IMG/VR virus record: IMGVR_UViG_3300042868_003731
Location: 153,967 to 217,966 of that record
DNA from: a virus
Lineage: Duplodnaviria; Heunggongvirae; Uroviricota; Caudoviricetes
DNA: 64,000 nt
Direction: 5' to 3' (one strand)
Positions 29,480 through 63,288 of the stretch are shown piece by piece (position 1 is the first letter of the stretch; each line of letters starts with the position of its first letter). A program made the translations under genes and the position numbers. The notes beneath the pieces are model-generated. The model had not been told where the DNA came from, searched no databases, and saw only the letters and a list, made by a program, of their open reading frames with translations.

Positions 29480-29523
29480 TTCCTTACATTATTAGAATAC
29501 ACTGATTCTAAACGAATGTCAAC
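29480..29523 (-). promoter_or_regulatory. Conserved early promoter-leader cassette copy 1 (PeSL-like), serving the DUF932 gene
   Basis: - strand reads GTTGACA-17 nt-TATTCT-AATAATGTAAGGAAC then the leader and ATG. Nearly identical to copies at 31400, 45080 and 47490. Confidence 0.6.
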
Positions 29524-29538
29524 CATTAAATGAAAAAA

Positions 29539-29838
29539 TTAGTGCATAGTTGTAGAAGTCATAGGAATGAAATCAATCATCTTATGAGTATACTTTCCAT
29601 AACCATTCTTCACTAGGTATACGACACTAACGTATTCGTCTTTCGTGTCGACCGGAATTACTTTCCAGACTCCACGATCTCGTCCGAGAAAATCGTCGAT
29701 GTATAGATTCGCTTCATCCTCGGTATCAAATGCGATTGCCTTTGAGAGACCTATGACATCATTCTTAGCAAAGATTCCATACTTCTGGAACGCGCCCAGA
29801 AAGAAACCTAGATCTTCTTCTGCAATCGCGTATCTCAT
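29539..29838 (-). CDS. Hypothetical protein
   Basis: ORF; no motif. Confidence 0.35.
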   Translation of the reverse strand: MRYAIAEEDLGFFLGAFQKYGIFAKNDVIGLSKAIAFDTEDEANLYIDDFLGRDRGVWKVIPVDTKDEYVSVVYLVKNGYGKYTHKMIDFIPMTSTTMH

Positions 29839-30395
29839 TAAGCTGCTACTTTAAACCACTCAGGGATATCACGTTTAGTCCACACCATTTTGAACCTTGC
29901 TTGTTTCGTCTGATAGAACTCTCGATAAGAACGAACAGGATCGTTAGGGAACATGCACTCAGGATTAGCTTTCATTGCGAGCGGCTGCTGAGTTAGATAT
30001 CCGATAGGAATGTTTCGTGGTAGTTCCTTCAGCTTTTCGCGAAGAAGTTTGTCAGTCGAATGAACCTTGCCATAACGATAGGTGTACTCGTCGCAGAGAG
30101 CAGCGAAGTGAACCCAGTGCCAAGTGTAGTTGTTATTCGACTGAGTAGTCCATACGGTACAAGGGTGCGCCATGTGAACTGCTTTGTATAGAATATGTTC
30201 GCGCTCATCAGGAAGAGTCCAATGCTTTGACATCGTCTTACCCGACTTCGATGGCGCACGTTTAAGAACACCATCAAGCATACGATGCGCAGTCGACAAC
30301 ATCTGTGCCGACTCCACGATCATTTTGACTACGTGCTTATCACACTGCAGTTGCGCTGCGACAACTGGGTCTTTATCCAAAATAAAAAGATTCAT
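29838..30395 (-). CDS. Possible pyrimidine-dimer DNA glycosylase (DenV / Pyr_excise-like); uncertain
   Basis: N-terminus 'MNLFILDKDPVVAAQLQCDKHVVKMIVESAQML' resembles the 'MRLWSLHPKYLD..GLVA.WREALLAQ' start of bacterial/phage pyrimidine-dimer glycosylases. This is weak pattern-level recognition only. Confidence 0.3.
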   Translation of the reverse strand: MNLFILDKDPVVAAQLQCDKHVVKMIVESAQMLSTAHRMLDGVLKRAPSKSGKTMSKHWTLPDEREHILYKAVHMAHPCTVWTTQSNNNYTWHWVHFAALCDEYTYRYGKVHSTDKLLREKLKELPRNIPIGYLTQQPLAMKANPECMFPNDPVRSYREFYQTKQARFKMVWTKRDIPEWFKVAA

Positions 30396-30608
30396 GATGA
30401 TTTATCCAAAAAGATGCATTCCTGACAAGAACCAGGCAATGAGAATGAACCCCATCCGCCCAGTGAAATAATGCTTACGTATTTTCATTCTACGCTGAAA
30501 GTCACTTACTGTAAACTGAAAAATGCTGTCCAATAGCGCAATGAAGATAAAAAAGATCCAACAACAAATGCGATCCATGCAACAATAGTCGTGAACATAG
30601 GATTTCCT

Positions 30609-30812
30609 CTATAGTTTATACTTAATCTGATTTACACCTAGAATGCCAAGTTCTACGCTCTTTACGTGATTGCACTTTGCAAAGTGGCGCTTCTTGCAGT
30701 TACAAGAAAAGCCATTCGCATGCATCTCTACTTGGCATCCACGAAACTTCCAGACATATCCAATGAACTGGTGTCCATTCGTATTGATTGACTTAGACTG
30801 AAACAGCGTCAT
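30609..30812 (-). CDS. Small SWIM-type zinc-finger protein
   Basis: 'FSCNCKKRHFAKCNHV' fits CxCxnCxH. Confidence 0.4.
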   Translation of the reverse strand: MTLFQSKSINTNGHQFIGYVWKFRGCQVEMHANGFSCNCKKRHFAKCNHVKSVELGILGVNQIKYKL

Positions 30813-31009
30813 TCGAATTCACAGACGAGTTCTTCGTGATAGTAGCAGTCGTCTACATATTCAGGATCGTAATCCTTTTCATGAGCTTGCTGAGTATGAT
30901 ACTGATGGCGAGCAAAGTCAGCTTCGGCTTCAAGATGAGCTTTCAGCTCGGGGTCCATCGAAGAGCAAGCCGACATAGTCAAAGCAAAGAGAACGATTGC
31001 GTATTTCAT
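30809..31009 (-). CDS. Small putative lipoprotein
   Basis: N-terminus 'MKYAIVLFALTMSAC' is signal-peptide plus lipobox-like (L-T-M-S-A-C). Confidence 0.4.
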   Translation of the reverse strand: MKYAIVLFALTMSACSSMDPELKAHLEAEADFARHQYHTQQAHEKDYDPEYVDDCYYHEELVCEFE

Positions 31010-31023
31010 GATGTTTCTTTCGA

Positions 31024-31383
31024 TTAAGCTGCGAAGCGGATCTTAGTCATCATTTCGGTGCACTTATAGAGCTTACCGTCTGCAGCGTTACGATAGACGA
31101 ACGGCATCTTCGGGGCGCGAGTGTTATAGTCAACGAGCTCGTCACCTGCTTTATTCTTCAGCTTGATGCCGAGAGCAGCTACACGAGACTCAAGGATCAC
31201 ATTGGTGAGAGTCTTTGCACCTTTGACCTTCGCTTTGACTTTAATCTCAACTTCGTTCGCGCTGAACTTCATATTGCCGACTTCAAACTCAAGGTTCGAG
31301 TCAACGCCGTACTTATTCAGAAGAACGGCCATCTCGGCACGAAGAGCATTCAGATTGGTACGGTCAAACTTGGAGAATTTCAT
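31024..31383 (-). CDS. Hypothetical protein
   Basis: First ORF downstream of cassette copy 2; AGGAGG RBS. Confidence 0.4.
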   Translation of the reverse strand: MKFSKFDRTNLNALRAEMAVLLNKYGVDSNLEFEVGNMKFSANEVEIKVKAKVKGAKTLTNVILESRVAALGIKLKNKAGDELVDYNTRAPKMPFVYRNAADGKLYKCTEMMTKIRFAA

Positions 31384-31399
31384 AGGAGGTTCCTTTCGT

Positions 31400-31443
31400 T
31401 CCTTACATTATTAGAATACACTGATTCTAAACGAATGTCAACT
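31400..31443 (-). promoter_or_regulatory. Conserved early promoter-leader cassette copy 2 (PeSL-like)
   Basis: 44/44 identity to copy 1. Confidence 0.6.
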
Positions 31444-31448
31444 ACTTT

Positions 31449-31679
31449 TTAGATTTCTCGGATTGCGTCGAGGATATGTTGATAGTCGATGTCACCTAGT
31501 ACTTGAGAGACGAGTTCCTCGAGGCAGTCTTGACTGTTAGACGAGAACTGATAGAGAGGGTTACCGCCGGCAGGGCCGTATTCCATGATAAGAAGAGCGG
31601 TGCAGCCGTGTTCGGTTGCGAACTGATGAATGGATTCTTGCGAGGCTTCGGCGGAGATGTCGAGTTCGGCGACGTACAT
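31449..31679 (-). CDS. Hypothetical acidic protein
   Basis: ORF downstream of a cassette variant. Confidence 0.35.
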   Translation of the reverse strand: MYVAELDISAEASQESIHQFATEHGCTALLIMEYGPAGGNPLYQFSSNSQDCLEELVSQVLGDIDYQHILDAIREI

Positions 31680-31711
31680 GGTGTATCCTTTCGTTTGATA
31701 TAGAACAGTCT

Positions 31712-32403: not shown

Positions 32404-32709
32404 TCACCCTCCGCATGATACTTTACCTGACCCAGTTGCCACAGACCCAGCGTCGGCCGAGTCTCCTACACGCGCAACCGGTATTCCTGCTATCGTTACT
32501 TTTGAAGAACCCGCATTGATAACAGAAGAATGCGGGACACAAACTGGTCCCGCATTAATAGTATGAGGTGCAATTGCATCACCTTGCACAGCGACTCTCT
32601 TTCCACCTATCGTAACCTTTGTCTGAAGAGAACCTTGTATGAGAGCGGTGCCGTCACAACCGTGACCGGTGGTGATCGTATCAACAGTACAGACGGCAAC
32701 CGCTGGCAT
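32404..32709 (-). CDS. PAAR-repeat spike-tip protein (T4 gp5.4-like)
   Basis: 101 aa, Gly/Val-rich, with repeated 'GxxVxxGxxxV' beta-strand units and His/Cys ligands (HGCDG...CVPHS). Confidence 0.65.
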   Translation of the reverse strand: MPAVAVCTVDTITTGHGCDGTALIQGSLQTKVTIGGKRVAVQGDAIAPHTINAGPVCVPHSSVINAGSSKVTIAGIPVARVGDSADAGSVATGSGKVSCGG

Positions 32710-41179: not shown

Positions 41180-41524
41180 CTATCTTCTCATACTCGCTGC
41201 ATCAACCGCAGCCTGTTTATTGTCTTTACGAATAGGAACCATGTTGGACTTGTGCGTGGTCGCAATGCCGAGGATCTCATTGCCTGTGTACTTAACGCTA
41301 GCTTTCTTTGCGCCGTTGGCGGCAACAACATCGCTTGTGACTCGAGGGCCAGTGTTGTAGTCCGGAATCTCGTAACGGTAGTCCTTTGAGTTTCCTTTAT
41401 AGCCAGCACGAGCAAGAAACCGAGCGTGTTCCGCTTCGGCTTCGATCATACGCTTCGTTTTGGTCTTTGGCTTTCTCTTACGAGTGTTGAGGGAAGTCAT
41501 CCCTCGAATCAAATGCATAGTCAT
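41180..41524 (-). CDS. Hypothetical basic protein
   Basis: ORF; Lys/Arg-rich N-terminus. Confidence 0.35.
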   Translation of the reverse strand: MTMHLIRGMTSLNTRKRKPKTKTKRMIEAEAEHARFLARAGYKGNSKDYRYEIPDYNTGPRVTSDVVAANGAKKASVKYTGNEILGIATTHKSNMVPIRKDNKQAAVDAASMRR

Positions 41525-41778
41525 TATTGGATCTTCTTCAGTTCAATATCCAGCTCTTGGCCGGTCCATACCATCATGTAGTACATGACCTTTTCAAGGT
41601 CAACAAGTTTTTCTTCAAGAAATTCGCACGGATCAAAGACGTTTGATATATCGATGCATTCTGCTTCAAAGTCAAAGCTGAGTGCTTCCGATAGAGTTAG
41701 ATGATAGTCCCTCATAAGAGTAACAAGATGAATCTCATAGTCAGAAGCTTCTGTCTTGGTAGCCATGTCTATCTCCAT
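41524..41778 (-). CDS. Hypothetical acidic protein
   Basis: First ORF downstream of the cassette variant at 41791. Confidence 0.35.
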   Translation of the reverse strand: MEIDMATKTEASDYEIHLVTLMRDYHLTLSEALSFDFEAECIDISNVFDPCEFLEEKLVDLEKVMYYMMVWTGQELDIELKKIQ

Positions 41779-43212: not shown

Positions 43213-44355
43213 TTACTTCATTCCCATCCAAGTTGCGCATTCATCCCACTTGACGTTAGACGACAATTGCTTTTCGATATGATCAAGGATCATCTCGCGA
43301 CCGTCACGGCCAGCGAAACGCCCAAACACATAGTTAGGAGCGAATGAGTCGTTGTCCTTGATGGACGGCATCCACTCCAAAGCGTAACGCTTGCGGTCGA
43401 GACCGCTTGCGACCACGGTGTTCCAGTAGCGATCGTAGATTTCTACGACAGCATGAAGCCGCTCTGCAAAACGAACCTCAAAGTTACGAACACGGTTTGC
43501 CTGAATGACAGGTAGCATCGGCATCACGTCGTCCATTTCCTCGTTGAGGATAAGAGCAACGATGTTACGGTCGAACACGATACGATCCACAGTCTTGTGG
43601 ATACGCACATACCAATCATTCTTGACCTTAACCATATGGCCATCAGCAAAACGAATGATGTCACCCTCACGACCTTCTGCACCGCGCTGACGGCTAATGT
43701 AGTCAGCAAGGTTGCCTTCTACACTACCATAACGAGGAACAGTGGAGAACGGACAAGACTTATCCATTACATACGCACCGGTTGCGTTGTCACGAGTACC
43801 AAGATACACGAGGTCTGCTTCTTCGTATGCCAACACGATCTGGTTGAACGGGCTTACCCACTCAAAGATCGGAGTCACCGAGTCGTGTACACACTGACGA
43901 AGCCATTCGTTCAACGAAGGGTCCTGAGCAGCAAGCCAGGTCTCAGCCTGCATAGCCACTTCAGTCACGCCCATCTTGGTAGCAAGACGAAGGTAACCAT
44001 CGACCAAGATAGGACGGATCATCGAACCATCGAGCTTTTCCATGATCACGTGATCAAACAAAACACTGAGATCCAACCGATGTGCTTGAGTCTCTTCACG
44101 TTCGTTCACGTTGAAGAACTTGTGAAACGGGCGGCTCATCAGGTTACCATCAGCATCAAAGATAAGACCACGGCATTCACGGCGGATCGCGCCACCAAGG
44201 TCATCGGGGCCAGTCATATCAAAGGTGTCAGCCATCGCCACCACATAGTTGACGATGGTATACCCTTCACGTTCTGCCACAACGAACTCAGGACGACCTT
44301 CGATGTGAGGAAGGACGTCTTCGATGGTGCGTATGATAGGAAAGGCGTAGTGCAT
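43213..44355 (-). CDS. rnlA: RNA ligase 1 (T4 RnlA-like)
   Basis: 'ECRGLIFDADGNLMSRPFHKFFNVNE', 'EKLDGSMI' (adenylation KxDG), 'IFEWVSPFNQIVLAY' and 'DGHMVKVKNDWYV' parallel T4 Rnl1 'ECRGIMFEMDGE..RPMEKFFNLNE', 'TKEDGSLV', 'NFEFVAPTNRIVLAY', 'DGSHFKIKSDWYV'. GC-elevated. Confidence 0.85.
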   Translation of the reverse strand: MHYAFPIIRTIEDVLPHIEGRPEFVVAEREGYTIVNYVVAMADTFDMTGPDDLGGAIRRECRGLIFDADGNLMSRPFHKFFNVNEREETQAHRLDLSVLFDHVIMEKLDGSMIRPILVDGYLRLATKMGVTEVAMQAETWLAAQDPSLNEWLRQCVHDSVTPIFEWVSPFNQIVLAYEEADLVYLGTRDNATGAYVMDKSCPFSTVPRYGSVEGNLADYISRQRGAEGREGDIIRFADGHMVKVKNDWYVRIHKTVDRIVFDRNIVALILNEEMDDVMPMLPVIQANRVRNFEVRFAERLHAVVEIYDRYWNTVVASGLDRKRYALEWMPSIKDNDSFAPNYVFGRFAGRDGREMILDHIEKQLSSNVKWDECATWMGMK

Positions 44356-44657
44356 TAGGTGTTCCTTTTTCGACTCGATAGATACTCTGTCATCTCAAGA
44401 GTGAGTTCACGAATTCGTGGCTTTACCGAAGCGTCATTATCTTGAACGAGTTTCTTCATAAGCTTCTCTCGTTCGCGGCGGAGGTCTCCAAATTTAGAAC
44501 CAATCCAGAGACCATTCGCCACTTCGTATTGTTTTTCGTCAGTCATTTTTAATCTTTGCTTTGCGCCATACACGATACCGATAGACAAACAAACCCAACA
44601 CGATGGCACCATCTGCATAGCTGTAACCATCAGTGACTTCTTCAAAATCTTCGGCAC
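44355..44657 (-). CDS. Hypothetical protein (start uncertain)
   Basis: ORF overlapping the next track ORF in another frame; one of the two is probably shorter than called. Confidence 0.25.
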   Translation of the reverse strand: MPKILKKSLMVTAMQMVPSCWVCLSIGIVYGAKQRLKMTDEKQYEVANGLWIGSKFGDLRREREKLMKKLVQDNDASVKPRIRELTLEMTEYLSSRKRNT

Positions 44658-44868
44658 GATACCAATGAAAACCGGACCACTTAATCCGAAGGAAGCCTAC
44701 TCTTTCAATACTACTTCGGCTTGGGCAGGCACGACCCTGGTTGCAGTCACTGTTACACGAAGAACAAGTCATTCTGCTTTTCCTAGCACAAGATCTTCGA
44801 TTGCACCGTACACAACGAGTACGATAAGAAAGACGACGGGGATCATTACAGCGGTCATTAGAAGTCAC
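44539..44868 (-). CDS. Hypothetical Cys/Arg-rich ORF (doubtful)
   Basis: GC-rich segment; the ORF may be an artefact. Confidence 0.2.
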   Translation of the reverse strand: MTSNDRCNDPRRLSYRTRCVRCNRRSCARKSRMTCSSCNSDCNQGRACPSRSSIERVGFLRIKWSGFHWYRAEDFEEVTDGYSYADGAIVLGLFVYRYRVWRKAKIKND

Positions 44869-45066
44869 TCCAGTTCATTGCCATACCGACATTCGTTTCG
44901 GCGTTACGCTTAGCAGCTTCGAAGTCCACGAAAGGACCGGCTGAGGTGAAGTTGTCGAGCAGACGACCCTCGGGGGTAAAGACCATGTAACCTTTGAAAG
45001 TCTTATGGATCATAACCGGCTTGATGGAGTTGGTAGCTTCGTTGTGTTCGTTGAAGGTCATCATGG
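44858..45066 (-). CDS. Small hypothetical protein (~69 aa, MMTFNEHNEATNSIKPVMIHK...), trimmed to the RBS-preceded ATG
   Basis: The track ORF extends through the upstream promoter cassette. AAGGAA-N7-ATGATG defines the start. Confidence 0.4.
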
Positions 45067-45079
45067 TCAGTTTCCTTTC

Positions 45080-45123
45080 GTTCCTTACATTATTAGAATA
45101 CACTGATTCTAAACGAATGTAAA
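45080..45123 (-). promoter_or_regulatory. Conserved early promoter-leader cassette copy 3 (-35 TTTACA variant)
   Basis: Identical to copies 1 and 2 except that the -35 reads TTTACA and the upstream flank shares AATAGGAAAGTGCACT with copy 4. Confidence 0.6.
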
Positions 45124-45149
45124 TAGGAAAGTGCACTGACCACGATTTT

Positions 45150-45461
45150 TTAGGAAATATTTTTCCAATTGCGAACGTATTCGACCTTCTTCTCACGAGT
45201 CCAATCTTTAAGATAGTCGTTGTCAGCGTCGAACTTCTCGAGCATCTGTTCTTCGGTGAGAATCTCCGAGTCGATGATAGTCTCGCCAACGTGCTTCTGA
45301 GAAAACTCTACTACCTCGTCACAGGTAACACAGTCTTCAGCCCATTCGATCTCACGTCCTTCGACAGGAACTTCAACGTTCAATTCCTGCAGTTCATCTA
45401 CAGGAATACAATACCGCATACGGTAAGACGAGATAGCAGTTACGATTACATATTTGGTCAT
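45150..45461 (-). CDS. Hypothetical acidic protein
   Basis: ORF. Confidence 0.35.
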   Translation of the reverse strand: MTKYVIVTAISSYRMRYCIPVDELQELNVEVPVEGREIEWAEDCVTCDEVVEFSQKHVGETIIDSEILTEEQMLEKFDADNDYLKDWTREKKVEYVRNWKNIS

Positions 45462-45823
45462 TTAATTAAATTACTCCAAGTTTTAAGTTTATTTCGCTTT
45501 ACATCTACTCTATCATCTAATTCATCATTAGTCAAGACGCCGTGTTCTACCATTAGTTTAATCATACAAAGCACATCACCTGCTTCTTCAACTAGTTGAT
45601 ACCTATATTTGTCTTTAGACATATCTTCCATGTTATCATACTTACGCATAATTTTCATGCAGACTTGAGTTAATTCGCCCGATTCTTCTGCTGTAATTGC
45701 CATTAACTGTTGGAAGGCATTAATTGGAGATTTTAGTTCTTCGTTACTTACCATGTCTTCTTTCCCGCAATCTCGCCCAGCGTGGTGCGGGCCATATCTC
45801 TTGCATACGTGTCTTCTCCCCAA
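45458..45823 (-). CDS. mazG: MazG-like nucleoside triphosphate pyrophosphohydrolase
   Basis: 'AEESGELTQVCMK' and 'LVEEAGDVLCMI' form the two EExxE/D metal-binding helices of the MazG fold. Confidence 0.55.
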   Translation of the reverse strand: MGRRHVCKRYGPHHAGRDCGKEDMVSNEELKSPINAFQQLMAITAEESGELTQVCMKIMRKYDNMEDMSKDKYRYQLVEEAGDVLCMIKLMVEHGVLTNDELDDRVDVKRNKLKTWSNLIK

Positions 45824-46017
45824 ACATAGATTGCATTAAGACCCCCGACGGCCTTCGCCAGATTGTCCTCTAGTTCTTCGATGCGGTCGGCGGCTTCGAG
45901 AGCATCTTCATCTTTCCACTCAATCCGCTTGTACCCGTCAATAGACTCAAACTCTTGCCGCTTCCGCAGCCGCTTCACCAGTTCTTCGTCAGTCATTTTA
46001 CTTCCTTTGCAATACAA
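45748..46017 (-). CDS. Hypothetical protein (probable start at MTDEELVKRL, ~45996)
   Basis: ORF; an upstream ATGA chain couples it to two unannotated small ORFs. Confidence 0.35.
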   Translation of the reverse strand: MYCKGSKMTDEELVKRLRKRQEFESIDGYKRIEWKDEDALEAADRIEELEDNLAKAVGGLNAIYVWGEDTYARDMARTTLGEIAGKKTW

Positions 46018-47289: not shown

Positions 47290-47475
47290 TTAGAAGCGAT
47301 ATTCTGCAGGTGCATCAACTGCGACTTCACGAACAACGAACTGCTCATAAGATGGCAGATCACGTTCAGCATCAACCAGATACTGTTGCGAAGCAGCTTC
47401 TGCGAGTTCACGAGACGAGTATACGCCTAGAAGGGTTTCACCTTCGTAGTCAGCAGCAAGAGTGAGTACAAACAT
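47290..47475 (-). CDS. Small hypothetical protein
   Basis: First ORF after cassette copy 4, with an AAGGAAC leader. Confidence 0.4.
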   Translation of the reverse strand: MFVLTLAADYEGETLLGVYSSRELAEAASQQYLVDAERDLPSYEQFVVREVAVDAPAEYRF

Positions 47476-47489: not shown

Positions 47490-47535
47490 GTTCCTTACAT
47501 TATTAGAATATACTGATTCTAAATGAATGTAAATA
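47490..47535 (-). promoter_or_regulatory. Conserved early promoter-leader cassette copy 4
   Basis: Near-identical to copy 3 (TTTACA -35; one A/G change in the spacer). Confidence 0.6.
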
Positions 47536-47556: not shown

Positions 47557-48681
47557 TTAATCTTCTCTTTTTCCAAAGCCCCAATCGATTACGACTGGAA
47601 ACCGAGGAACGCCATCCGGAGTCGGAGTGAAGTAGCGAAGAGTAACCCAATCGGGTTTCTTGCCTGCATCCCAGAGAGCACGTAGAGTGTCCATGTCACC
47701 ACGAACACCAGCTTGGAAGTCACGAGTATCATTCAGTTTCAAAACAAAATGTTTAGTGCATCCCTGCCAGTTTCCAATACCAGACATCATTTCCTTGACT
47801 TCGAACTCGTCGGTCAAGAACTCTTTACGCTTCAGCAAGTTTTTCGTACGCTTGTTCTCGTAACGACCATCGATGCGGATCATCTGACCTTCGTATCCAT
47901 GTTCGAGATAACCCTCATACAGAGTATCGATCGACTGCGGATCGTTGACCTGCATGGTCGGAACCATCTTTACGAATTCGTTCGAAGCTTCGTAGCGCAA
48001 CAGCTCACGCTTACGGAACGGCAGATCCGGACTATCAGTCACATAGACGTCATAGACGTGATACTGCACGAGTTCCTTCGATTTCATGATGTCTTCGGGC
48101 TTCGGTTTTGTCTTACGAACCATCGAGGTGATGGTGTTGAAGTCATCCTTCAGCTCGTGATTATAGAGTTCGCCGTCAAGAATTAAGTTTGGATTCTTTT
48201 CAAAATAAGACTGCAGCGACTCCCAGACGTGAGGAACAGCGACGATTTCTTTTCCTGCGCGAGTCCATAGACCATCCTTACGAGCGATGCAACGAATGCC
48301 ATCGAGCTTCGGTTGACTATAGATGTATCCCTTTGACCAGTTAACCGGAACCTCTTCATACTTCTCAGCCAACATCGGCTTGAACTTATCAAAGGTATGG
48401 ATCATATCGATGTTAGAGAAATAGCCAGTATCTTCTTTCTTCTGCATTTCAGATACCATCTCAGCGTTTGCTTGCGCTTCGAGAGACGTCTCGTTTGAGC
48501 GTCCGACGTTCTTTTGTTCAACGAAGGTCCATTCAGAAGTAATCTGTTTTCCGTCCTGAAGCCCTGAGATCGTCCGTAGACCCCATCGAGTTCCATCAGT
48601 GCCGGTCTCTGCTCGCCAGACTCGCGTCTTACCTTTTGTATCTACCTTATACAGGTTCTCAGTGCTTGTTTTAACTTCCAT
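47557..48681 (-). CDS. ATP-dependent DNA ligase
   Basis: 'SQPKLDGIRC' carries the KxDGxR adenylation motif I in a ~370-aa protein with the expected downstream 'ILDGEL' and 'EGQMIR' motifs. Confidence 0.8.
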   Translation of the reverse strand: MEVKTSTENLYKVDTKGKTRVWRAETGTDGTRWGLRTISGLQDGKQITSEWTFVEQKNVGRSNETSLEAQANAEMVSEMQKKEDTGYFSNIDMIHTFDKFKPMLAEKYEEVPVNWSKGYIYSQPKLDGIRCIARKDGLWTRAGKEIVAVPHVWESLQSYFEKNPNLILDGELYNHELKDDFNTITSMVRKTKPKPEDIMKSKELVQYHVYDVYVTDSPDLPFRKRELLRYEASNEFVKMVPTMQVNDPQSIDTLYEGYLEHGYEGQMIRIDGRYENKRTKNLLKRKEFLTDEFEVKEMMSGIGNWQGCTKHFVLKLNDTRDFQAGVRGDMDTLRALWDAGKKPDWVTLRYFTPTPDGVPRFPVVIDWGFGKRED

Positions 48682-48744
48682 AACGATTCTCCGAATTGGT
48701 TCATACTTGTTCTGTATAAACTAGTTTTATGAGATTGTAAACAA

Positions 48745-48772
48745 AAAAGAGCGCCGAAGCGCTCTTTTTCTT
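48745..48772 (-). terminator. Rho-independent terminator after the SPFH gene (bidirectional-looking)
   Basis: AGAGCGC-CGAA-GCGCTCT hairpin flanked by an A-tract and a T-tract. Confidence 0.55.
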
Positions 48773-48784
48773 CATATTTTTATC

Positions 48785-50544: not shown

Positions 50545-50755
50545 GGCCGGTCATGCCGAGTTCATAAAGTCGGGCCATCATCTTTGCATCGTGTTCAGTC
50601 TTGATATACATCGATGTGTCGAGATCGCCGTGCAACATACCTACTTCAGTTCTAAAGAAGTCAACTACATACATAGTTTTGGTATAGGAACCGTCAAAGT
50701 TGCCGTAGCAGACGTCGACTTCAACTTCTTCGGGGGTCACGATTGCGATAGCCAT
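50477..50755 (-). CDS. Hypothetical acidic protein
   Basis: ORF with a weak TTGACA-17-TATATC promoter-like sequence upstream (50782..50810). Confidence 0.35.
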   Translation of the reverse strand: MAIAIVTPEEVEVDVCYGNFDGSYTKTMYVVDFFRTEVGMLHGDLDTSMYIKTEHDAKMMARLYELGMTGRGEYNEITFNKIFEDAEVGEDA

Positions 50756-50818
50756 AGTTGTTCTCCATTGCTTACAATATAGATATAATCAATGTAGAAG
50801 CAAATGTCAATGGCTTTC

Positions 50819-51577
50819 TTAAACTTTTTTTCGAACAGACTCATTATATTTTACGGCAGCTTCTAGCGTCTGTAGCTCGACGCCTGAGTTCTTTGCCGTC
50901 TGCAGAATCGCCGCGGTATCCTTTGGAAAACACGCTCCGCCCCAGCCTCTATCGTTCTCATTTACAAAAGTATGGCTCTCACCGATACGAGAGTCTAACG
51001 TGACACCAGAGCGAACCGACTCGTAATCCAATCCGAGCGTTTCACAGAAATCGTAGATCTCGTTGAAGAAGCTACACTTTGCCGCAAGAAACGAGTTTCG
51101 AAAATACTTGATGGCAATTGCGTGCTTTGGCTTACATACAGTTATGCTGATGTCTGGATACACCGTCGTGTAAAAATCTAACCAGTATTGAACGTTACCG
51201 CCAGCCAAGAACGCATGAGTGAGGTTCTTAAGGTCGTCGTCTGCGCTTGCAGCTCGAAGAAATTCTGGACTAAATGTGATGGAGTGTTCAGGAAAGTTTC
51301 TTTCGAGAGTTTCCCATCCCTCCATCGATATCGTGCTCTTAATGAGAATTGGAGCTTCTTTTGGAATGTCTTGAATTACATTATAGATTATGCTCATATC
51401 ACAGCTTCCATCTTCAGATGATGGAGTCGAAACACAGACGATAGCACCACTAATGTTTTCTATGTCTTTGATACGAATATTGCTGAAGGCCGGATCTACG
51501 ATAGACATTTCGTGATGAGGGCTAAACGCTTTATAGTGAGCTTTACCAACGAAGCCGTATCCTAATAGTACAATCAT
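50819..51577 (-). CDS. Short UDP-glucose/GDP-mannose dehydrogenase-family protein
   Basis: N-terminal 'VLLGYGFVGKA' Rossmann motif and 'GWGGACFPKDTAAI' catalytic-Cys motif (GG.C.PKD). At 252 aa it is shorter than canonical UDPGDH. Confidence 0.6.
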   Translation of the reverse strand: MIVLLGYGFVGKAHYKAFSPHHEMSIVDPAFSNIRIKDIENISGAIVCVSTPSSEDGSCDMSIIYNVIQDIPKEAPILIKSTISMEGWETLERNFPEHSITFSPEFLRAASADDDLKNLTHAFLAGGNVQYWLDFYTTVYPDISITVCKPKHAIAIKYFRNSFLAAKCSFFNEIYDFCETLGLDYESVRSGVTLDSRIGESHTFVNENDRGWGGACFPKDTAAILQTAKNSGVELQTLEAAVKYNESVRKKV

Positions 51578-51587: not shown

Positions 51588-52595
51588 CTAGTTAGTTTTA
51601 CAGTTTATAAGATTGTCTCGAAAAATGTTCCAAGCGTTTCCCCAATCCCATTTCATGCTGAATTTGTATACTGATTCTCTATCGAGGTCAAGAGATTTTT
51701 TAATAGCGATAGTGATATCCTCATCCATATAACCAGTTACATCTTGATCTATTACGTCTAATGGTCCTTGCACAGGATAAGCAGCGACCGGAGTACCGCA
51801 TGCCATTGCCTCAATCATCACCAATCCAAATGTATCCCAACGACTAGGAAACACAAAAACATCAGCCTGTTGATAATAATGCGCGAGTTCAGCACCACGT
51901 TTGGCACCTACAAAGTTCACGTAAGGATATTGCTTCTTGTATGTTTCTAACATAGGACCATCGCCTACGATAGTTTTAACTGCATTGGGGTAGTTTATCT
52001 CAAGAAAAGCTTCCAGATTTTTTTCTTTGCTTACTCGACTCACGCAAACGAGGTTAATGTGCGAGCATGGTTCTTTCACTGCCGGTTTGAATATATCCCT
52101 ATCAACTCCTCGAGTCCAATGAATAACATTGTTATTAAATCCATGCGCATGAAGTTCATCGACCATTGATTTTGTCGTAGTGAGTACCTTATTGCTATTC
52201 TTATGGAACCAGCGCACAACTGCCCAAGTAATTCCTTCAGGAATTCCTAGTAACGTCCTTACACCTTCAGGAAACTTAGTATGGTAAGCAGTATTGTACT
52301 TAATCCCACGTATTGCAAGATACCTTCTAGCAGACATACCCATAGGACCTTCTGTGGCGATGTGTATATAATCCGGATCAATCTTCTTGATCTCTTTCCC
52401 AACAACCCAAGGAGGTGCCCAGGCAAGCTTAACTTCATTGTACTTTGGGCAATCAATATGGCCGTACATCCCGGGATGAATATAATCAACAGTATAACCG
52501 TCGCGAATCGCATACGTCTCAATATTTTTGTAGGTCGTAACCACACCATTAATCTGATTCGGTAAGTTGTCTGTAACTATTAAGATCTTCGGCAT
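51588..52595 (-). CDS. GT4-family (GT-B) glycosyltransferase
   Basis: 'FPSRWDTFGLVMIEAMACGTPVAA' fits the E-x7-E motif. Confidence 0.7.
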   Translation of the reverse strand: MPKILIVTDNLPNQINGVVTTYKNIETYAIRDGYTVDYIHPGMYGHIDCPKYNEVKLAWAPPWVVGKEIKKIDPDYIHIATEGPMGMSARRYLAIRGIKYNTAYHTKFPEGVRTLLGIPEGITWAVVRWFHKNSNKVLTTTKSMVDELHAHGFNNNVIHWTRGVDRDIFKPAVKEPCSHINLVCVSRVSKEKNLEAFLEINYPNAVKTIVGDGPMLETYKKQYPYVNFVGAKRGAELAHYYQQADVFVFPSRWDTFGLVMIEAMACGTPVAAYPVQGPLDVIDQDVTGYMDEDITIAIKKSLDLDRESVYKFSMKWDWGNAWNIFRDNLINCKTN

Positions 52596-53321: not shown

Positions 53322-54287
53322 TTATTTAAGAGCAGAAACTTCAGCCTGAGTAGCTGCAAGTTCTGGATCTGGAACCAATCCATACTGTGCAAGAGCGCCA
53401 TCAGGACCTGCCATCTCATCACTCACGAAGAACTCGATGTATTCCTTCAGACCAGGAATGACGCTGAGGTGAGCGTTCTTCACGTAGAAGTAAAGTGGAC
53501 GGCTGATTGGATAGTCACCGCTTGAGATGGTTTCTACGCTTGGTGCCACGCCACTTACCGTGGCAACTTCTAGTTTATCAGTGTTGTTCTGATAGAAGCT
53601 AAGACCAAACACACCTAGCGATGTTTTATTAGCATCAAGACGAGCAAGTGTTTCTGTGTAGTCGCCATCGATGTCAACTGCTGCACCGTCAGTTCTTACT
53701 TTCACACAAGCTTTCTTTTGATCGTCATCGAGTTTCTCAACACCGAGAGCTGCTTTACAACCTTCTTCCATCACCTTTACATCGAACACTTCACGAGTGC
53801 CGTGTTTGGTACCTGGAATGTATGCAAGGATTGCTACTTCTGGAAGAGTCGAGTCGACTTCACTCCAGAGTTTTGCAGTGCTCGACTCGTGTAGAGCGCT
53901 ATAGAGTTGTTCGACTGTTAGATTATCGATATTAAGTTGATCGATGTTCGATGCAAACACGATACCGTCATAACCAATACGAACCTCAGTCACTTCACCA
54001 ATTGCTTCTTCACACTTGGCTCTTTCTTCATCCTTCATCTTTGAAGAACTATTTGCGATGTCAACAGTGTTTTCACCAACACCTTCGCAGAGCTTCTTAC
54101 GGCCTGCACCCGAACCACCACCTTCAACTACTGGCGACGGAAAATCAAAATTTTCACCAAATGCCTCTGCGACAATGGTTGCATATGGTAGTACTGTAGA
54201 CGATCCTGTTACTTGAACGTTATCTCTTGCAAACGCAGTCGTGGACGCCAAAGCAATAATTGCCGCCGCTGATAGTAAAGCTTTCAT
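53322..54287 (-). CDS. pstS: Periplasmic phosphate-binding protein PstS (PBP_like_2) with signal peptide
   Basis: Signal peptide 'MKALLSAAAIIALASTTAFA', then 'VQVTGSSTVLPYATIVAEAF' and 'GGGSGAGRKKL', the hallmarks of phosphate-binding SBPs. Confidence 0.75.
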   Translation of the reverse strand: MKALLSAAAIIALASTTAFARDNVQVTGSSTVLPYATIVAEAFGENFDFPSPVVEGGGSGAGRKKLCEGVGENTVDIANSSSKMKDEERAKCEEAIGEVTEVRIGYDGIVFASNIDQLNIDNLTVEQLYSALHESSTAKLWSEVDSTLPEVAILAYIPGTKHGTREVFDVKVMEEGCKAALGVEKLDDDQKKACVKVRTDGAAVDIDGDYTETLARLDANKTSLGVFGLSFYQNNTDKLEVATVSGVAPSVETISSGDYPISRPLYFYVKNAHLSVIPGLKEYIEFFVSDEMAGPDGALAQYGLVPDPELAATQAEVSALK

Positions 54288-54349
54288 ATAATTCTCCTTT
54301 GTTTAAATATCCCTATTCATTGGGGATATTACTATATTATATTGAAGAT

Positions 54350-54367
54350 GTAACAATCGTATAACAG
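54350..54367 (-). promoter_or_regulatory. Pho-box-like direct repeat (CTGTTAT-ACGA-TTGTTAC), 8 bp upstream of a TATAAT -10, in front of pstS
   Basis: The - strand reads CTGTTATACGATTGTTAC-ATCTTCAA-TATAAT. It matches the CTGTCAT-N4-CTGTCAT PhoB consensus at 11 of 14 positions. A leader hairpin (AATATCCC..GGGATATT) follows. Confidence 0.45.
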
Positions 54368-54388
54368 TTGGAATAAATTTTTGTAAAA

Positions 54389-55050: not shown

Positions 55051-55233
55051 TTATCCCTCGTATTTTTCTTTTAGTCGAGCAAGTTCGGCTCGTTCTTTAC
55101 GTTCTTTGTCTTTACGCAGCCATCTGATATAGATATCTTGGTCGTATGTACAATCCTTATTGCAGCATTCCCAACCGATAGGACCACAATCGGTGAGTGG
55201 CTGTTTACACCCTTCACATACTAACTCAGTCAT
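55051..55233 (-). CDS. Small Cys-rich zinc-ribbon-like protein
   Basis: CEGC...C..C...CC..C pattern in 60 aa. Confidence 0.35.
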   Translation of the reverse strand: MTELVCEGCKQPLTDCGPIGWECCNKDCTYDQDIYIRWLRKDKERKERAELARLKEKYEG

Positions 55234-55754
55234 TCGATTACCTCGTTTGGAAACTGTTCTGTTGGTACAAAAACATACTCAGGCTTTTCTGGTTGTGTCC
55301 ACGGAAACTCAATAAACACTCGGCTTTCACGACCCGTATAGTAGCTCTTATATGGTTTACCTTCGTCAATATCTGGCGATGAATACCATTCCCAAAACAC
55401 TCGACCATCCATCCAGTATGGTCGCCCATCTTCATCCTTAAAGACAGAACTGTTACGTTTGTTCTGCCACATATCTGCGCTGACTTCCGTCCACTCGTCA
55501 GATTCGCCAGTCAAAGGAGCAATAGGTTTCCATGATGCGAGCTTCTCAAACAAAGCTACTGCATACGGTGCCGACATACCGCTGTGTCCTTGTTCTGAGA
55601 ACACTTTGAGAAGCTCAAGCGTTCCTTCTGCAAGCCAACGGTTTGGTCCATCTTCTGGATCATTAATATCATATCCAGCCAGTTTAAGTTCGGCTTCCGC
55701 CCATTTCAACATGTTGCTCATTTGCTTTCCTCTATTAGATTTTTCAAGCGCCAC
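55230..55754 (-). CDS. Hypothetical protein
   Basis: ORF. Confidence 0.35.
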   Translation of the reverse strand: MALEKSNRGKQMSNMLKWAEAELKLAGYDINDPEDGPNRWLAEGTLELLKVFSEQGHSGMSAPYAVALFEKLASWKPIAPLTGESDEWTEVSADMWQNKRNSSVFKDEDGRPYWMDGRVFWEWYSSPDIDEGKPYKSYYTGRESRVFIEFPWTQPEKPEYVFVPTEQFPNEVIE

Positions 55755-58826: not shown

Positions 58827-58986
58827 TTAGCATCCTTTACTTTAATATTGCCGCAGTGATCGCACTGCAACGTATAGCGATCACACGACCCTTTTGAAAA
58901 GTCGGTTTCATAATCAACTCTAAGTTTATCAATGATCTTCCACTTATGGATATGACCAAAGAAGAGTAGTTGAATTAGACGAATCA
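58825..58986 (-). CDS. Unannotated small Cys/His ORF (~54 aa, ...CDRYTLQCDHCGN...)
   Basis: My own translation; ATGA-coupled on both sides. Confidence 0.3.
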
Positions 58987-59376
58987 TTCCTTCACCTCAT
59001 ATACTGGAATTCCAGCTTTCTTTCCTTGTCGAATCATATCAGCGGTACCTTTACCACCTCTAAAAGCTATTATAACATGCGGTTGCCCAGATGTCAACAT
59101 TAATTTATTGCGAATTGGTCCTGCAGATCTTCCATGATTTGCCCAGTCTGCAGGAAATGATAGAACCTTAAGCGATCTCTCTCTTGCGTATTGATCTGCG
59201 AGAAGATCCGCCCCTCGTGCGTTTCCATGAATGATGACCAGAACTTTTTCTGCATTCCGGACTCCTTCATGTACTGCGTCAAGTACTCTTCTAAGTCGAA
59301 CGGAGTCTGAATAGTCTCTGCCTCCGCAGACGAGGACTCGGAACTCATCACCATCCATCCTTGAAATTGACTCCAC
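58984..59376 (-). CDS. SLOG-superfamily protein (DUF2493/YspA-like Rossmann nucleotide-binding domain)
   Basis: 'VLVCGGRDYSD', 'IIHGNARGADLLADQYA' and 'VIIAFRGGKGTADMI' give the GG.....GAD...A / GG.GT pattern of DprA/LOG/SLOG-type domains. Confidence 0.45.
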   Translation of the reverse strand: MESISRMDGDEFRVLVCGGRDYSDSVRLRRVLDAVHEGVRNAEKVLVIIHGNARGADLLADQYARERSLKVLSFPADWANHGRSAGPIRNKLMLTSGQPHVIIAFRGGKGTADMIRQGKKAGIPVYEVKE

Positions 59377-60912: not shown

Positions 60913-62013
60913 TTACGATTTGACTAGAGTAATTTTTTCAGAAGCTCGAGTGATTGCAGTATACAACCACCTTTGCCAGTCGTCTCGGAAACACCAAGAC
61001 TCGTCATATATGAGAACATTTTCCCACTGCGAACCCTGCGACTTATGACACGTGATCGCGTATCCAAAGTCGAACTCTTGACTTCCTTTTAAGAACTTCC
61101 AATCTGGAACTGCAACTTCTGAACTAAAGAAGCTCTTATGAACCTTTACCATCACAGGAAGACTCGTGTCGTCGTCTTCTGGATTGAGACTCATATTCAG
61201 AAAGCTAGTCTTATACTTTGACTCAAAGACACGATCCACATTAAACATACCGCCGTTAAAGATTGCTCGATCGCGATCGTTACGAAGGCAGATGAGTTTT
61301 TCTCCTTTGATTGGATACTCATCATAGATCTTTAGAAGTTTGCGAACCTTTAAGTTCATCGTGTCACGAGTCGCATTCCTTCCTACGAGGATCTGGCTCG
61401 CCTCGAGTGCATCAGTCGAGGACACCTTCGAAACGATACGAGAATCTCCGTAGTCACCAATGTCTGGTTGAATTCCTTGGCGAACCTGAGACGCAAGATA
61501 GACGATTGGATTGTCTTGTGCTTGACGATGGATCTCAGTCAACATAACGTCAGGCTTTGCTTCTGTGAAGAAACCAGCTCCTGAGACTGGAGGCAGCTGA
61601 GCCGGATCTCCTAGAACCAAGACAGGAACTCCAAACGAAAGAAGATCCTTCGCCAGTTCTTCGTCAACCATCGAACACTCGTCAATGATCAAAAGAGATG
61701 CTTCCTTGAGCATGCTCTCTTTATTCAGACGCCACCAAACCTCGCCCGTCTTTTTGTCCGGTTCGGCGATATAGATTAGACTGTGGATGGTTCTTGCACC
61801 TTCGCAACCACGCTTTCTCATTACGAGCGCAGCTTTACCGGTGAATGCCGCAAACAAGACGAGACCGTCAATGTTTTGAGCGAAGTGTGTGGCCAGTGTA
61901 GTTTTTCCCGTGCCAGCATAACCAAAGATGCGAAAGACCTGCTTCTTTTTTGATTCCGTATAGAACCATCTATCGACCGCTTTAAGTGCGGTCTCTTGTT
62001 GTGGTGACCACAT
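60913..62013 (-). CDS. dda: Dda-like SF1 DNA helicase (RecD-like)
   Basis: 'IFGYAGTGKTTL' Walker A, 'LLIIDECSMV' Walker B, and 'GDPAQLPPV' and 'YAITCHKSQGSQW' helicase motifs, as in T4 Dda ('INGPAGTGKTTL', 'VLICDEVSMY', 'GDNKQIRPV', 'TFHKAQGMS'). Confidence 0.85.
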   Translation of the reverse strand: MWSPQQETALKAVDRWFYTESKKKQVFRIFGYAGTGKTTLATHFAQNIDGLVLFAAFTGKAALVMRKRGCEGARTIHSLIYIAEPDKKTGEVWWRLNKESMLKEASLLIIDECSMVDEELAKDLLSFGVPVLVLGDPAQLPPVSGAGFFTEAKPDVMLTEIHRQAQDNPIVYLASQVRQGIQPDIGDYGDSRIVSKVSSTDALEASQILVGRNATRDTMNLKVRKLLKIYDEYPIKGEKLICLRNDRDRAIFNGGMFNVDRVFESKYKTSFLNMSLNPEDDDTSLPVMVKVHKSFFSSEVAVPDWKFLKGSQEFDFGYAITCHKSQGSQWENVLIYDESWCFRDDWQRWLYTAITRASEKITLVKS

Positions 62014-62042
62014 AACTGCCCCTTATCTTACCATACAAAACC

Positions 62043-62071
62043 ATAATATCACACAACTAAAGGGTTGTAAA
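62043..62071 (-). promoter_or_regulatory. Sigma70-like early promoter for dda (TTTACA-17-TATTAT with upstream TG)
   Basis: Seen directly on the - strand: TTTACAACCCTTTAGTTGTGTGATATTAT. Confidence 0.5.
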
Positions 62072-62088
62072 TAGATAAATACTAGCAG

Positions 62089-62310
62089 TTACAAATCTGC
62101 ACCCGCAGCATCCCAGTGATAACACGAATATTTCTTTGGCTCATAGCCAACGTACGCCGTCTGAAAATATTCGTTGCTGACGAAAGACGCAATCGCATCT
62201 TCGCATTCTCTTTCAGACTCTAAAATATTTTGATTTGATAGTATGATACAGTTACTTGAGCTTATAGGATTGTCGATAAGACATATCATGATCATTGCTG
62301 TAAACATCAA
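62089..62310 (-). CDS. Hypothetical ORF (doubtful)
   Basis: It would start only 14 bp from the divergent + strand lipoprotein gene. No RBS or motif support. Confidence 0.2.
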   Translation of the reverse strand: MMFTAMIMICLIDNPISSSNCIILSNQNILESERECEDAIASFVSNEYFQTAYVGYEPKKYSCYHWDAAGADL

Positions 62311-62324
62311 GGGAATCCTTTCAT

Positions 62325-62876
62325 ATGAAAATAACCATGATTTTATTTATATTAACATTCTTAACTGCTTGCACGAATCCTGAATATCTTGCTAAACGTG
62401 AAGAAAAGCTTGCAAAAGAAAATAGTGAAAAGGTGGTTTACTATGCTAGTAACTACGTAGGCATGCATGAGGTAACAGACAGAAAGCAACTAAAGAGTCT
62501 AATGGGTATGGATCCATCACGTTTCGAGTGGTGCGCCGCCTTCGTAAATTCAATTCTATCCACAAAGGGTATACCAGGATCCGAGTCAGTCAGTAATCAT
62601 CCTCTCGTGGCAAAAAGCTTTTTAAAGTGGGGTGAAGAAGTTACTGAGAGTCCTCGACCTGGAGATGTAGTCGTGTTTCCGAGAGGAAGGCAACAGTGGC
62701 AAGGACACGTCGGATTCTTTGTTACTTCCTATGTCGACGAAGGAAAGATGTACTATGTTATTCTTGGTGGAAATCAAGGAAACGAAGTAAGCTACAAGGT
62801 ATATGAAGCAAGAAAGGCCATCTCCGTTAGAAGATGGCCTACAGATGTGAACACAACAGTTATGACTATGAACTAG
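62325..62876 (+). CDS. Lipoprotein with a CHAP/NlpC-P60-like (TIGR02594-like) Cys-His domain; putative periplasmic peptidoglycan-active enzyme
   Basis: Lipobox 'LTAC' after the signal peptide. 'FEWCAAFVN' (Cys) and 'QGHVGFFVT' (His) are spaced as in CHAP-type hydrolases, and 'GGNQGNEV' is TIGR02594-like. It is a lone + strand gene in the - strand block. Confidence 0.5.
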   Translation: MKITMILFILTFLTACTNPEYLAKREEKLAKENSEKVVYYASNYVGMHEVTDRKQLKSLMGMDPSRFEWCAAFVNSILSTKGIPGSESVSNHPLVAKSFLKWGEEVTESPRPGDVVVFPRGRQQWQGHVGFFVTSYVDEGKMYYVILGGNQGNEVSYKVYEARKAISVRRWPTDVNTTVMTMN

Positions 62877-63223
62877 GTCAGCTGCGGATATTTGCCAACA
62901 GCGACGAAGCCAAAGGTATCGCAGACGAAGCAATCACCGCTATCGTCGATGAAGATATCACCGACAGAACTGGAATAAGCACGGCCGATGCGCTTACCCT
63001 TGTAACGATCACCAATCCCATTCGAAACTTCGAACGCTTCGTCCAGGTCGGTAGTATCGATTTCCCAACCTTTGACGTAGTGCTTCAGATAAGCTTCAGA
63101 GAACTTAGACTTATCAAAGCCGAACTGCATTCGGTTGCGAACCGTAAAAGCTTCAACCTCACGACCTGCGTTGATAGCGATGATCTGATCGTCGGTCAGT
63201 TGGATCTGGTAGATGGTAATCAT
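62873..63223 (-). CDS. Hypothetical protein
   Basis: First ORF after the cassette copy at 63258. Confidence 0.35.
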   Translation of the reverse strand: MITIYQIQLTDDQIIAINAGREVEAFTVRNRMQFGFDKSKFSEAYLKHYVKGWEIDTTDLDEAFEVSNGIGDRYKGKRIGRAYSSSVGDIFIDDSGDCFVCDTFGFVAVGKYPQLT

Positions 63224-63257
63224 GGTGGCCTCCTTGCCATTCCTTATATTATCAATC

Positions 63258-63288
63258 TACACTGATTCTAAACGAATGTAAATAGAAA
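63258..63288 (-). promoter_or_regulatory. Conserved early promoter cassette copy (TTTACA -35 variant; -10 region diverged)
   Basis: Shares ACACTGATTCTAAACGAATGTAAATAG with copies 3 and 4. Confidence 0.45.

Follow-up and report, generated by a model that had tools for sequence, protein, structure and literature searches.

The 64-kb window analysed here (64,000 nt, positions 153,967 to 217,966 of IMG/VR record IMGVR_UViG_3300042868_003731) is part of the genome of an uncultivated T4-like myovirus and carries a family of short, repeated promoter–leader cassettes, which are the subject of this study. The + strand of the window encodes the large terminase, tail sheath, portal, scaffold, and major capsid proteins, and the capsid protein shares approximately 66% identity with its counterparts in Sinorhizobium phage phiM12, Methylophilales phage Melnitz, and cyanophages. 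The − strand between 27 and 64 kb encodes an RNA ligase, a DNA ligase, a Dda-like helicase, exonucleases, PhoH, PstS, sugar-modifying enzymes, and many small open reading frames (ORFs) that belong to no family. The cassettes are confined to this − strand early region, where they sit in short gaps directly 5′ of ORFs and are always oriented with the gene. The genes directly 3′ of them are mostly small ORFs without a family.

The most conserved part of the family is a 41-nt string, ACATTCGTTTAGAATCAGTGTATTCTAATAATGTAAGGAAC, which occurred exactly at positions 29479–29519, 31398–31438, and 45080–45120 of the − strand and with two mismatches at 47490–47530, whereas the number expected by chance was zero (100 shuffles). 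The four near-identical copies described in an earlier sequence-only reading of this window are therefore real. Cassettes are named here by the coordinate of the first −35 base; P29522 and P31441 are identical over 45 nt, and the four closest copies are near-identical over 41–45 nt. The four degenerate relatives that had been proposed near 31712, 41791, 59808, and 63258 also proved to be genuine, and repeat finding, direct reading, and alignment placed these further members at 31735, 41819, 59856, and 63282. The intergenic copies consist of TTGACA or TTTACA, a 17-nt spacer, TAnnnT, a leader of approximately 25–40 nt with an AAGGA-type ribosome-binding site, and ATG, with 6–8 nt between the ribosome-binding site and ATG in the copies with the conserved leader. 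The family spacer is TTCGTTTAGAATCAGTG; the length of 17 nt given for it previously was correct, but the 14-nt sequence written out at that time was not. Across eight co-oriented − strand copies, the consensus was TTKACA-TTC-N4-AGAATCAGTR-TAnnnT followed by the leader with its ribosome-binding site, and the conserved part of the spacer, hereafter the box, is AGAATCAGT at positions −22 to −14. All nine GAATCAGT octamers in the 64-kb window lie inside family elements, where approximately two would be expected in the window from its length alone. The family also includes one box-bearing copy located within a gene (−35 at 51691), another, weak one at 38941 that is likewise intragenic, and box-less relatives at 50810 and 48741.

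Among the individual copies, all on the − strand, P29522 (29455–29522) comprises the −35 hexamer TTGACA (29517–29522), the box (29501–29509), the −10 hexamer TATTCT (29494–29499), and the leader, ending at the ATG (29455–29457) of a DUF932 gene (28501–29457). This gene had been considered imported-looking, but it is conserved across the clade and is also present in phiM12 and Melnitz. P31441 (31381–31441) has TTGACA, the box, TATTCT, and the leader GTAAGGAACGAAAGGAAC before the ATG of orf119 (31024–31383, no family), and P31735 (31677–31735) has TTGACA, the box, and TAGACT before the ATG of orf76 (31449–31679), with the stop codon of the exonuclease gene formed by the TGA within its −35 TTGACA. 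P41819 (41764–41819) reads TTGACA, TTCTGATAGAATCAGTA, TACTCT and leads to the ATG of orf80 (41524–41766). Three copies begin with TTTACA: P45123 (45062–45123), with the box, TATTCT, and the conserved leader before the ATG (45062–45064) of orf68 (44858–45064); P47533 (47473–47533), with TTCATTTAGAATCAGTA, TATTCT, and the conserved leader before the ATG of orf61 (47290–47475), which has a weak DUF7336 match; and P63282 (63221–63282), with the box and TAGATT before the ATG of orf116 (62873–63223). These three box-bearing TTTACA copies share a pyrimidine tract, CACTTTCCTA, upstream of the −35, and an A-tract (AAAAAGT) occupies this place at P31441 and P59856. The box-bearing copy inside a gene (51663–51691; TTGACC, then ...AGAATCAGTA and TACAAA) lies in the 3′ end of a glycosyltransferase ORF (51588–52595) and is a possible internal promoter for 50819–51577.

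An imperfect inverted repeat, AGAAT-N6-ATTCT, had been put forward as a regulator site within the spacer. We rejected it as an operator because it arises only where the −10 is TATTCT and is missing from the other members; it is not a feature of the family, and the conserved feature outside the hexamers is the asymmetric box. Local duplication of coding sequence, the competing origin named for the repeats in the sequence-only reading, is excluded by the intergenic position of the copies and by flanks that bear no relation to one another. It is scarcely conceivable that the cassettes are something other than promoters, whether duplicated coding sequence, a small transposable element, or a structured RNA: only the repetition itself speaks for this, and against it stand the intergenic positions, the unrelated flanking ORFs, the constant orientation relative to genes, and the absence of terminal inverted repeats, of Rfam matches, and of covariation, with folding z-scores near zero for most copies.

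The T4-type late promoter motif TATAAATA was found at eight sites on the + strand, most of them directly 5′ of structural genes (6064, 11328, 18152, 22446, 23864, 24571, and 25577), and at one site on the − strand (62351). The cassettes lack TATAAATA and are not T4-type late promoters, which carry TATAAATA at the −10 and have no −35. Nor do they match MotA-type middle promoters, which have a MotA box near −30 and no −35 consensus, as all intergenic copies have TTGACA or TTTACA and only the intragenic copy at 51691 departs from this pair (TTGACC). Since the + strand late genes use TATAAATA instead, the cassettes are very probably early promoters of the sigma70 type, served by the host polymerase. 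This agrees with the previous description of a −35/−10 pair fused to a conserved 5′ untranslated region and ribosome-binding site, and the predicted sigma70-type promoters lie in the early, variable − strand region.

To examine the box without circularity, we fetched 80 loci by the DUF932 protein alone and read the sequence upstream of the gene. Where the DUF932 protein is 68–95% identical to that of the window, (A)GAATC(A/G)G is retained in the orthologous promoter, always equally far from the −10, and the 7 nt between the box and the −35 vary freely (TTCGTTT, TTCTCTT, TATCGTG, AATAGAC, ATCACAA, and others). A promoter pattern blind to the spacer, applied to the window and the loci, yielded 258 unique contexts, 117 of which had GAATC at a fixed offset (99 at −21 to −17 and 18 at −20 to −16); about half of this locus sample was gathered with the box pattern itself, so that box frequencies in it are biased, whereas the DUF932 set is unbiased. 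The two classes of promoter differed in their −10 regions. Among the 117 box-bearing promoters, TATAAT was outside the ten commonest −10 hexamers (≤1/117), which were led by TATTCT, TATATT, TAGTAT, and TAGATT, and the extended −10 motif TGn was never present (0%). The box-less promoters, in contrast, had TATAAT in 45 of 141 cases and TGn in 33%, and the box-less promoters of the window at 59097, 62071, and 34669 all combined TGn with a −10 matching at 5–6 of 6 positions; one of these (62011–62071, −; TTTACA-17-TGaTATTAT) precedes the Dda-like helicase gene. The conservation pattern suggests that the box is kept by selection independently of the hexamers. Because box-bearing promoters have a weak −10 and no TGn, whereas box-less ones have TATAAT and/or TGn, the box appears to act as a positive element, making up for a poor −10, and not to be a repeat that is passively carried along.

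The box also occurs in a second arrangement. In P59856 (59796–59856, −; class B), TTTACA is followed by the spacer TTCGTTGCGAAATGGTT, TATACT, and then directly GATTCTA, before the ATG of orf67. The spacer is ordinary, and an inverted box lies just 3′ of the −10, where the 13-mer TATACTGATTCTA is the exact reverse complement of TAGAATCAGTATA in the promoters with the box in the spacer (class A). The class B arrangement recurs in three related loci (L088, L107, and L093; L-numbers denote loci of related phages), and the orf67 orthologue in L050 has a class A promoter. The box thus seems to work, or at least to be kept, in both orientations and on both sides of the −10. A box-less relative, class C, occurs at 50753–50810 (−; TTGACA, TTTGCTTCTACATTGAT, TATATC) before the ATG of orf92, and the orf92 orthologue in L001 has a box-bearing class A promoter.

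These observations bear on whether the box needs a reader at all, as identity between the copies could result from recent copying and gene conversion, with selection acting on the hexamers only. Consistent with this, the paralogous copies of a genome agree in leader variants peculiar to their lineage (AATAAT, ATATCT, or ATATTT), and distant lineages each have their own spacer consensus. Such an origin is nonetheless very improbable, considering that the box persists at orthologous promoters of genes 68–85% identical in protein while adjacent spacer bases vary, that its offset is fixed and it covaries with −10 quality, and that the 13-nt inverted copy at the −10 of the second promoter class recurs in other lineages.

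The pattern ACATTC-N4-AGAATCAGTRTA was found in 76 IMG/VR stretches, representing 64 unique contexts. A scan of 596 Gb of GTDB prokaryote genomes returned 16 isolated matches, none of which was preceded by TTG or TTT; these are chance matches, and the genomes scanned contain no full copy. We had considered identifying the host by the motif, but the 16 chance matches carry no host information. Among isolates, a megablast search with 20 kb gave only a 75-bp match to a Roseobacter phage and a short-query search with the cassette gave only chance matches, so that no cultured phage carries the cassette. More distant lineages of uncultivated phages and Melnitz (Kyanoviridae) have several near-identical promoters per genome before small early genes, with an A-rich tract, (C)TTGAC(A/T)TTTGTTyT, and a 17-nt spacer. 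Unlike the promoters described here, however, they use TATAAT, often with TGn, lack the GAATC box, and have a different spacer consensus in each lineage. In Caulobacter phage Cr30 (L174, 1–50000), too, small genes are preceded by repeated early promoters of a distinct family, (C)TTTACTTTT...TATAGTTCAT.ATAAGG, which shows that extended, lineage-specific early promoters are common in the wider phage group.

Relatives differ in the genes that lie between those for the exonuclease and DUF932 and in other parts of this variable region, and the comparison of flanking genes across related phages called for in the sequence-only reading did reveal differences at the cassettes. In four loci (L004, L006, L009, and L052), the orf76 and orf119 modules occur in the opposite order, the −10 and leader staying with their gene in each case. 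After the same core at the position of P31735, three or four different genes follow the exonuclease gene in different lineages, and the gene upstream of P45123 has a different next gene in L016. In L071, an identical cassette precedes two different genes, and orthologous genes can carry different promoter classes. Furthermore, cassettes of the same genome tend to have the same leader variant (four copies in the window have AATAAT, those of L001 have ATATCT, and two in L071 have ATATTT), which suggests gene conversion between them.

Taken together, we consider it likely that the cassettes are sigma70 early promoters joined to a leader and ribosome-binding site, in which the spacer box acts as a positive element and the shared sequence as a homology patch for recombination. 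Host sigma70 holoenzyme would initiate approximately 7 nt past the −10, giving a leader of approximately 25 nt (GUAAGGAACGAAAGGAAC...), in which the second AAGGA would be the Shine–Dalgarno sequence, 6–8 nt before the AUG. The reader of the box would be a factor that either accompanies RNA polymerase or assists it. The 25–60 nt of identity between copies would offer a homology patch to the phage recombination system, and crossovers in the shared core would swap or replace promoter–gene modules.

Several points weigh against this interpretation. The box could instead be a repressor operator. The absence of TGn is partly forced, given that the box fixes G and T at −15/−14, although the absence of TATAAT is not. 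The −10 hexamers are weak, matching at 3–4 of 6 positions, so that sigma70 by itself may not suffice for activity; start sites, timing, and polymerase are predictions from sequence. As regards recombination, approximately 26 of the 116 ends of 58 distinct rearrangements lay ≤45 nt from a cassette, a share inflated by the many breakpoints near DUF932, the gene used to select the loci. Cassettes occupy approximately 13 of 82 gene junctions, which is close to their share of breakpoints, so that enrichment is not evident. The indel of L030, a relative with 99% identity, lies away from any cassette: 666 bp (L030 1062–1729 against window 28470–28505) are inserted between the DUF932 stop codon and the next gene, comprising an AT-rich ORF on the opposite strand, a terminator, and a TTGACA promoter belonging to the insertion. 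This insertion may be a mobile gene, perhaps a homing endonuclease. The idea that the cassettes are tied to gene shuffling is thus upheld as far as junctions inside the shared core in several comparisons are concerned, but not as regards enrichment over other junctions; the cassettes appear able to act, and to have acted, as crossover sites, and the breakpoint tally does not mark them as preferred ones.

The cassettes had been likened to the promoter early stem-loop (PeSL) elements of T4-type phages. A PeSL consists of an AT-rich tract, a terminating stem–loop, a sigma70-like early promoter, a Shine–Dalgarno sequence, and ATG, and PeSLs concentrate in hyperplastic regions, beside indels between close relatives (PMC2839356, PMC4122927). 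Much of this applies here. The genome is T4-like; repeated, conserved sigma70-like early promoters with Shine–Dalgarno and ATG (predicted in all intergenic copies as TTKACA-17-TAnnnT, an AAGGA-type Shine–Dalgarno, and ATG) precede small ORFans of variable regions; the copies are alike well outside the hexamers; and the junctions of some insertions, replacements, and order swaps fall within the element. On the other hand, the cassettes lack the upstream stem–loop or terminator, their AT-rich upstream tract is inconsistent, breakpoint enrichment over other gene junctions is not demonstrable, and the invariant spacer box has not been described for PeSLs. The PeSL label therefore holds for the promoter, Shine–Dalgarno, ATG, and genomic setting, but not for the upstream stem–loop or terminator.

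It is accordingly improbable that these are true PeSLs, that is, mobile cassettes of terminator and early promoter whose recombination, including via mini-circles, is the main driver of gene shuffling. In addition to the likenesses given above, the ORFan surroundings and the core junctions in several comparisons would fit this. So would approximately five contexts in relatives with a real terminator, including a hairpin directly before the −35 in L001, L056, and L074, and a composite element in the window at 48682–48784 (−), before the DNA ligase gene, where the hairpin AAAAAGAGCGCTTCGGCGCTCTTTTTT precedes TTTACA-17-TATACA without a box (folding z −4.1). This last element is, however, the only true terminator-plus-promoter composite in the region. 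Terminator scans found no terminator-like site upstream of any family copy, none of the six window copies tested (0/6) had a terminator-like hairpin upstream of the −35, and the 55 nt upstream of the −35 folded no better than shuffles (median z −0.1, 60 contexts). There is no room for a hairpin in several copies, because the stop codon of the upstream gene lies 0–8 nt from the −35 or inside it, and RNAalifold gave no consensus structure (−1.2 kcal/mol, no compensatory pairs). Most synteny breaks also fall at cassette-free junctions, as does the L030 indel. The true-PeSL reading already fails on the stem–loop; what the cassettes resemble in part, functionally, is a PeSL cassette without its terminator.

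One copy does fold strongly. P45123 with its flanks (45062–45141, −) forms a 77-nt imperfect palindrome (−27.9 kcal/mol, z −5.9) enclosing the promoter and ribosome-binding site. In the modelled fold, read-through transcripts would have the upstream CTTTCC tract paired with the Shine–Dalgarno sequence, and transcripts from the cassette's own promoter would lack the left arm. A conserved hairpin around the promoter was rejected as a family feature, as the P45123 hairpin is not conserved in the family; P47533 folds weakly.

If the box is a positive element, the question arises of what reads it. One candidate, which we regard as doubtful, is the alphaproteobacterial regulator GcrA: the box would be a GcrA-type box, and the host's GcrA–sigma70–RNA polymerase complex would read the (methylated) TGATTCT and drive open-complex formation. 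GcrA recognizes YGAKTCK, with TGATTCG as its best site (PMC4647560). The reverse complement of AGAATCA, TGATTCT, fits this motif and matches the top site at 6 of 7 positions; the variants GAATCG and CGAATC in relatives also fit, but GGAATC does not. Assuming a start 7 nt past the −10, GAATC lies at −21 to −17, with its centre at −19, near the cluster of Caulobacter GcrA boxes at −20 ± 1 and the GAATC at −22 to −18 in the promoter used for cryo-EM (PMC9976885). GcrA acts as a monomer from sites upstream or downstream of the start, described with centres at −20 ± 1 or −30 ± 2 in the spacer or at +5 to +30, and promotes open-complex formation (PMC9976885); the monomeric action fits an asymmetric box used in both orientations (classes A and B), and the promotion of open complexes fits the weak −10 of box-bearing promoters.

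The identity of the host matters here because GcrA and CcrM are confined to Alphaproteobacteria. The window contains a gene (27631–27876, −) for an 81-aa GapR-like protein (DUF2312; Pfam E = 1.4e-28), and GapR is described as restricted to Alphaproteobacteria. Its homologues occurred in 149 phage records, almost all from phages of Rhodobacter, Rhizobium, Ruegeria, Agrobacterium, Caulobacter, or Brevundimonas, and the best matches (70–77% identity) were in phages of Rhodobacteraceae. By portal, capsid, and DUF932, Sinorhizobium phages of the phiM12 type are the nearest isolates; by portal, Caulobacter phage Cr30 follows closely. The host is probably an alphaproteobacterium, judging from these relationships, in keeping with the GcrA interpretation. 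Furthermore, the box and the GapR gene co-occurred in the DUF932-selected loci (22/4/5/48 among 79 loci, Fisher p = 4e-11, with relatedness not controlled) and were found together in two separate parts of a rough DUF932 tree, likewise uncorrected for relatedness; this co-occurrence may reflect shared ancestry only.

Other observations argue against GcrA. The match was found post hoc, after many regulators had been considered, and the box conserves AGT beyond the GcrA heptamer. A tblastn search with CcrM and GcrA queries, both confirmed as members of their Pfam families, found no CcrM-like or GcrA-like gene in the window, about one-third of the genome, or in 1.3 Mb of related loci. The class B site (approximately −6 to −2) is closer to the −10 and outside the described +5 to +30, and the window elsewhere shows no shortage of YGAKTCK heptamers (99, with 83.5 expected). 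Avoidance of GANTC was also considered and proved uninformative, GAWTC being mildly under-represented (0.58–0.70) and YGAKTCK overall not. A precedent was sought in Cr30 and phiM12, T4-like phages whose hosts are known to be alphaproteobacterial; they have repeated promoters of their own but no consistent GANTC at −20. Compared with GcrA-activated Caulobacter promoters, in which CcrM methylates the GANTC adenine at N6, the cassettes are alike in having a YGAKTCK-fitting GANTC heptamer, with a predicted centre at approximately −19/−20, that is asymmetric and usable on either side of the −10, in promoters that need help with open-complex formation and in a probably alphaproteobacterial host (PMC4647560, PMC9976885); they differ in forming a phage promoter family rather than serving host cell-cycle genes, in a box longer than the heptamer, and in that no phage CcrM or GcrA gene turned up in the sequence searched. 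Tentatively, then, and with a good deal more doubt than confidence, one may picture an uncultivated clade of T4-like phages, apparently from freshwater (to judge only from IMG sample identifiers) and with probable Alphaproteobacteria hosts, that has built a GcrA box into its early promoters, with GcrA and DNA methylation switching the early genes and the 25-nt core serving also as a crossover site. If true, this would tie phage early transcription to alphaproteobacterial cell-cycle epigenetics, of which we found no description in the literature.

The same box might instead be the operator or target of a phage protein, such as an early-gene repressor acting in the switch from early to late expression, a factor delivered with the virion, or the GapR-like protein, a reading that we likewise rate as rather unlikely. 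An invariant, asymmetric 9-mer that overlaps the stretch immediately 5′ of the −10 (in class B, the −10 and the start) is placed such that a bound protein would occlude the polymerase; the motif is confined to a phage clade and is not found in prokaryote genomes; and it is a phage gene, the GapR-like one, that co-occurs with the box. Yet the box-bearing promoters are weak and the box-less ones strong, the opposite of strong promoters in need of repression. The approximately 80 proteins of the window, which is about one-third of the genome, include no sequence-specific DNA-binding domain except that of the GapR-like protein, and GapR is described as binding AT-rich or overtwisted DNA, not a motif (PMC13408042). 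An informal comparison with the LexA, Fur, PhoB, CRP, NrdR, NtcA, and TyrR motifs gave no fit to the box.

Whichever factor, if any, reads the box, the box sets the cassettes apart from the early promoters of T4. Those have a strong TATAAT with TGn and an A-rich UP region, and their extra conserved positions are thought to help the phage out-compete host promoters; the extended consensus was reportedly worked out by Wilkens and Ruger, and Sommer et al. are said to have treated it in connection with Alt ADP-ribosylation. Both groups, the cassettes by prediction, are phage early promoters for the host sigma70 polymerase with more conserved positions than host promoters, but the box-bearing promoters combine a weak −10 and the lack of TGn with a separate 9-mer in the spacer. 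That T4-like phages have repeated early promoters was already known, as was the idea that these mediate module shuffling. What is new is a discrete and, to all appearance, strongly selected spacer box, traded against −10 strength, and with it a promoter class found throughout a large clade of uncultivated phages. The box offers a testable handle on how a phage takes over host RNA polymerase in the first minutes of infection, and a sequence tag for early genes and clade members in metagenomes.

Several other features of the − strand region may be recorded. An RNA-repair-like cluster at 43213–47116 comprises an RNA ligase (43213–44355), a PNKP-type phosphatase (46321–46767), and a cyclic-phosphate-processing receiver domain (46751–47116); two family cassettes lie within or adjoining it, and the DNA ligase gene occupies 47557–48681. 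A PstS-type phosphate-binding protein is encoded at 53322–54287 (−; PBP_like_2, E = 8e-54), 47% identical to its homologue in records named 'Acinetobacter phage MD-2021a' and 41% identical to that of Pelagibacter phage Mosig. The 101-nt gap upstream of this gene (54288–54388) has no family promoter and holds a palindrome, ATATCCCCAATGAATAGGGATAT; phosphate-responsive control of the gene is possible. Between 62308 and 62872, a 565-nt gap in the − strand gene array contains a + strand ORF (62325–62876, 183 aa) and a strong hairpin (62815–62840). The early genes also include those for a PAAR-motif protein (32404–32709, −) and a YAcAr/SLOG-family protein (58984–59376, −), and the ORF at 55230–55754 (−) matches Tad3, an inhibitor of type I Thoeris (Pfam PF25185, E = 7e-39), making it a candidate anti-defence gene of the early region.

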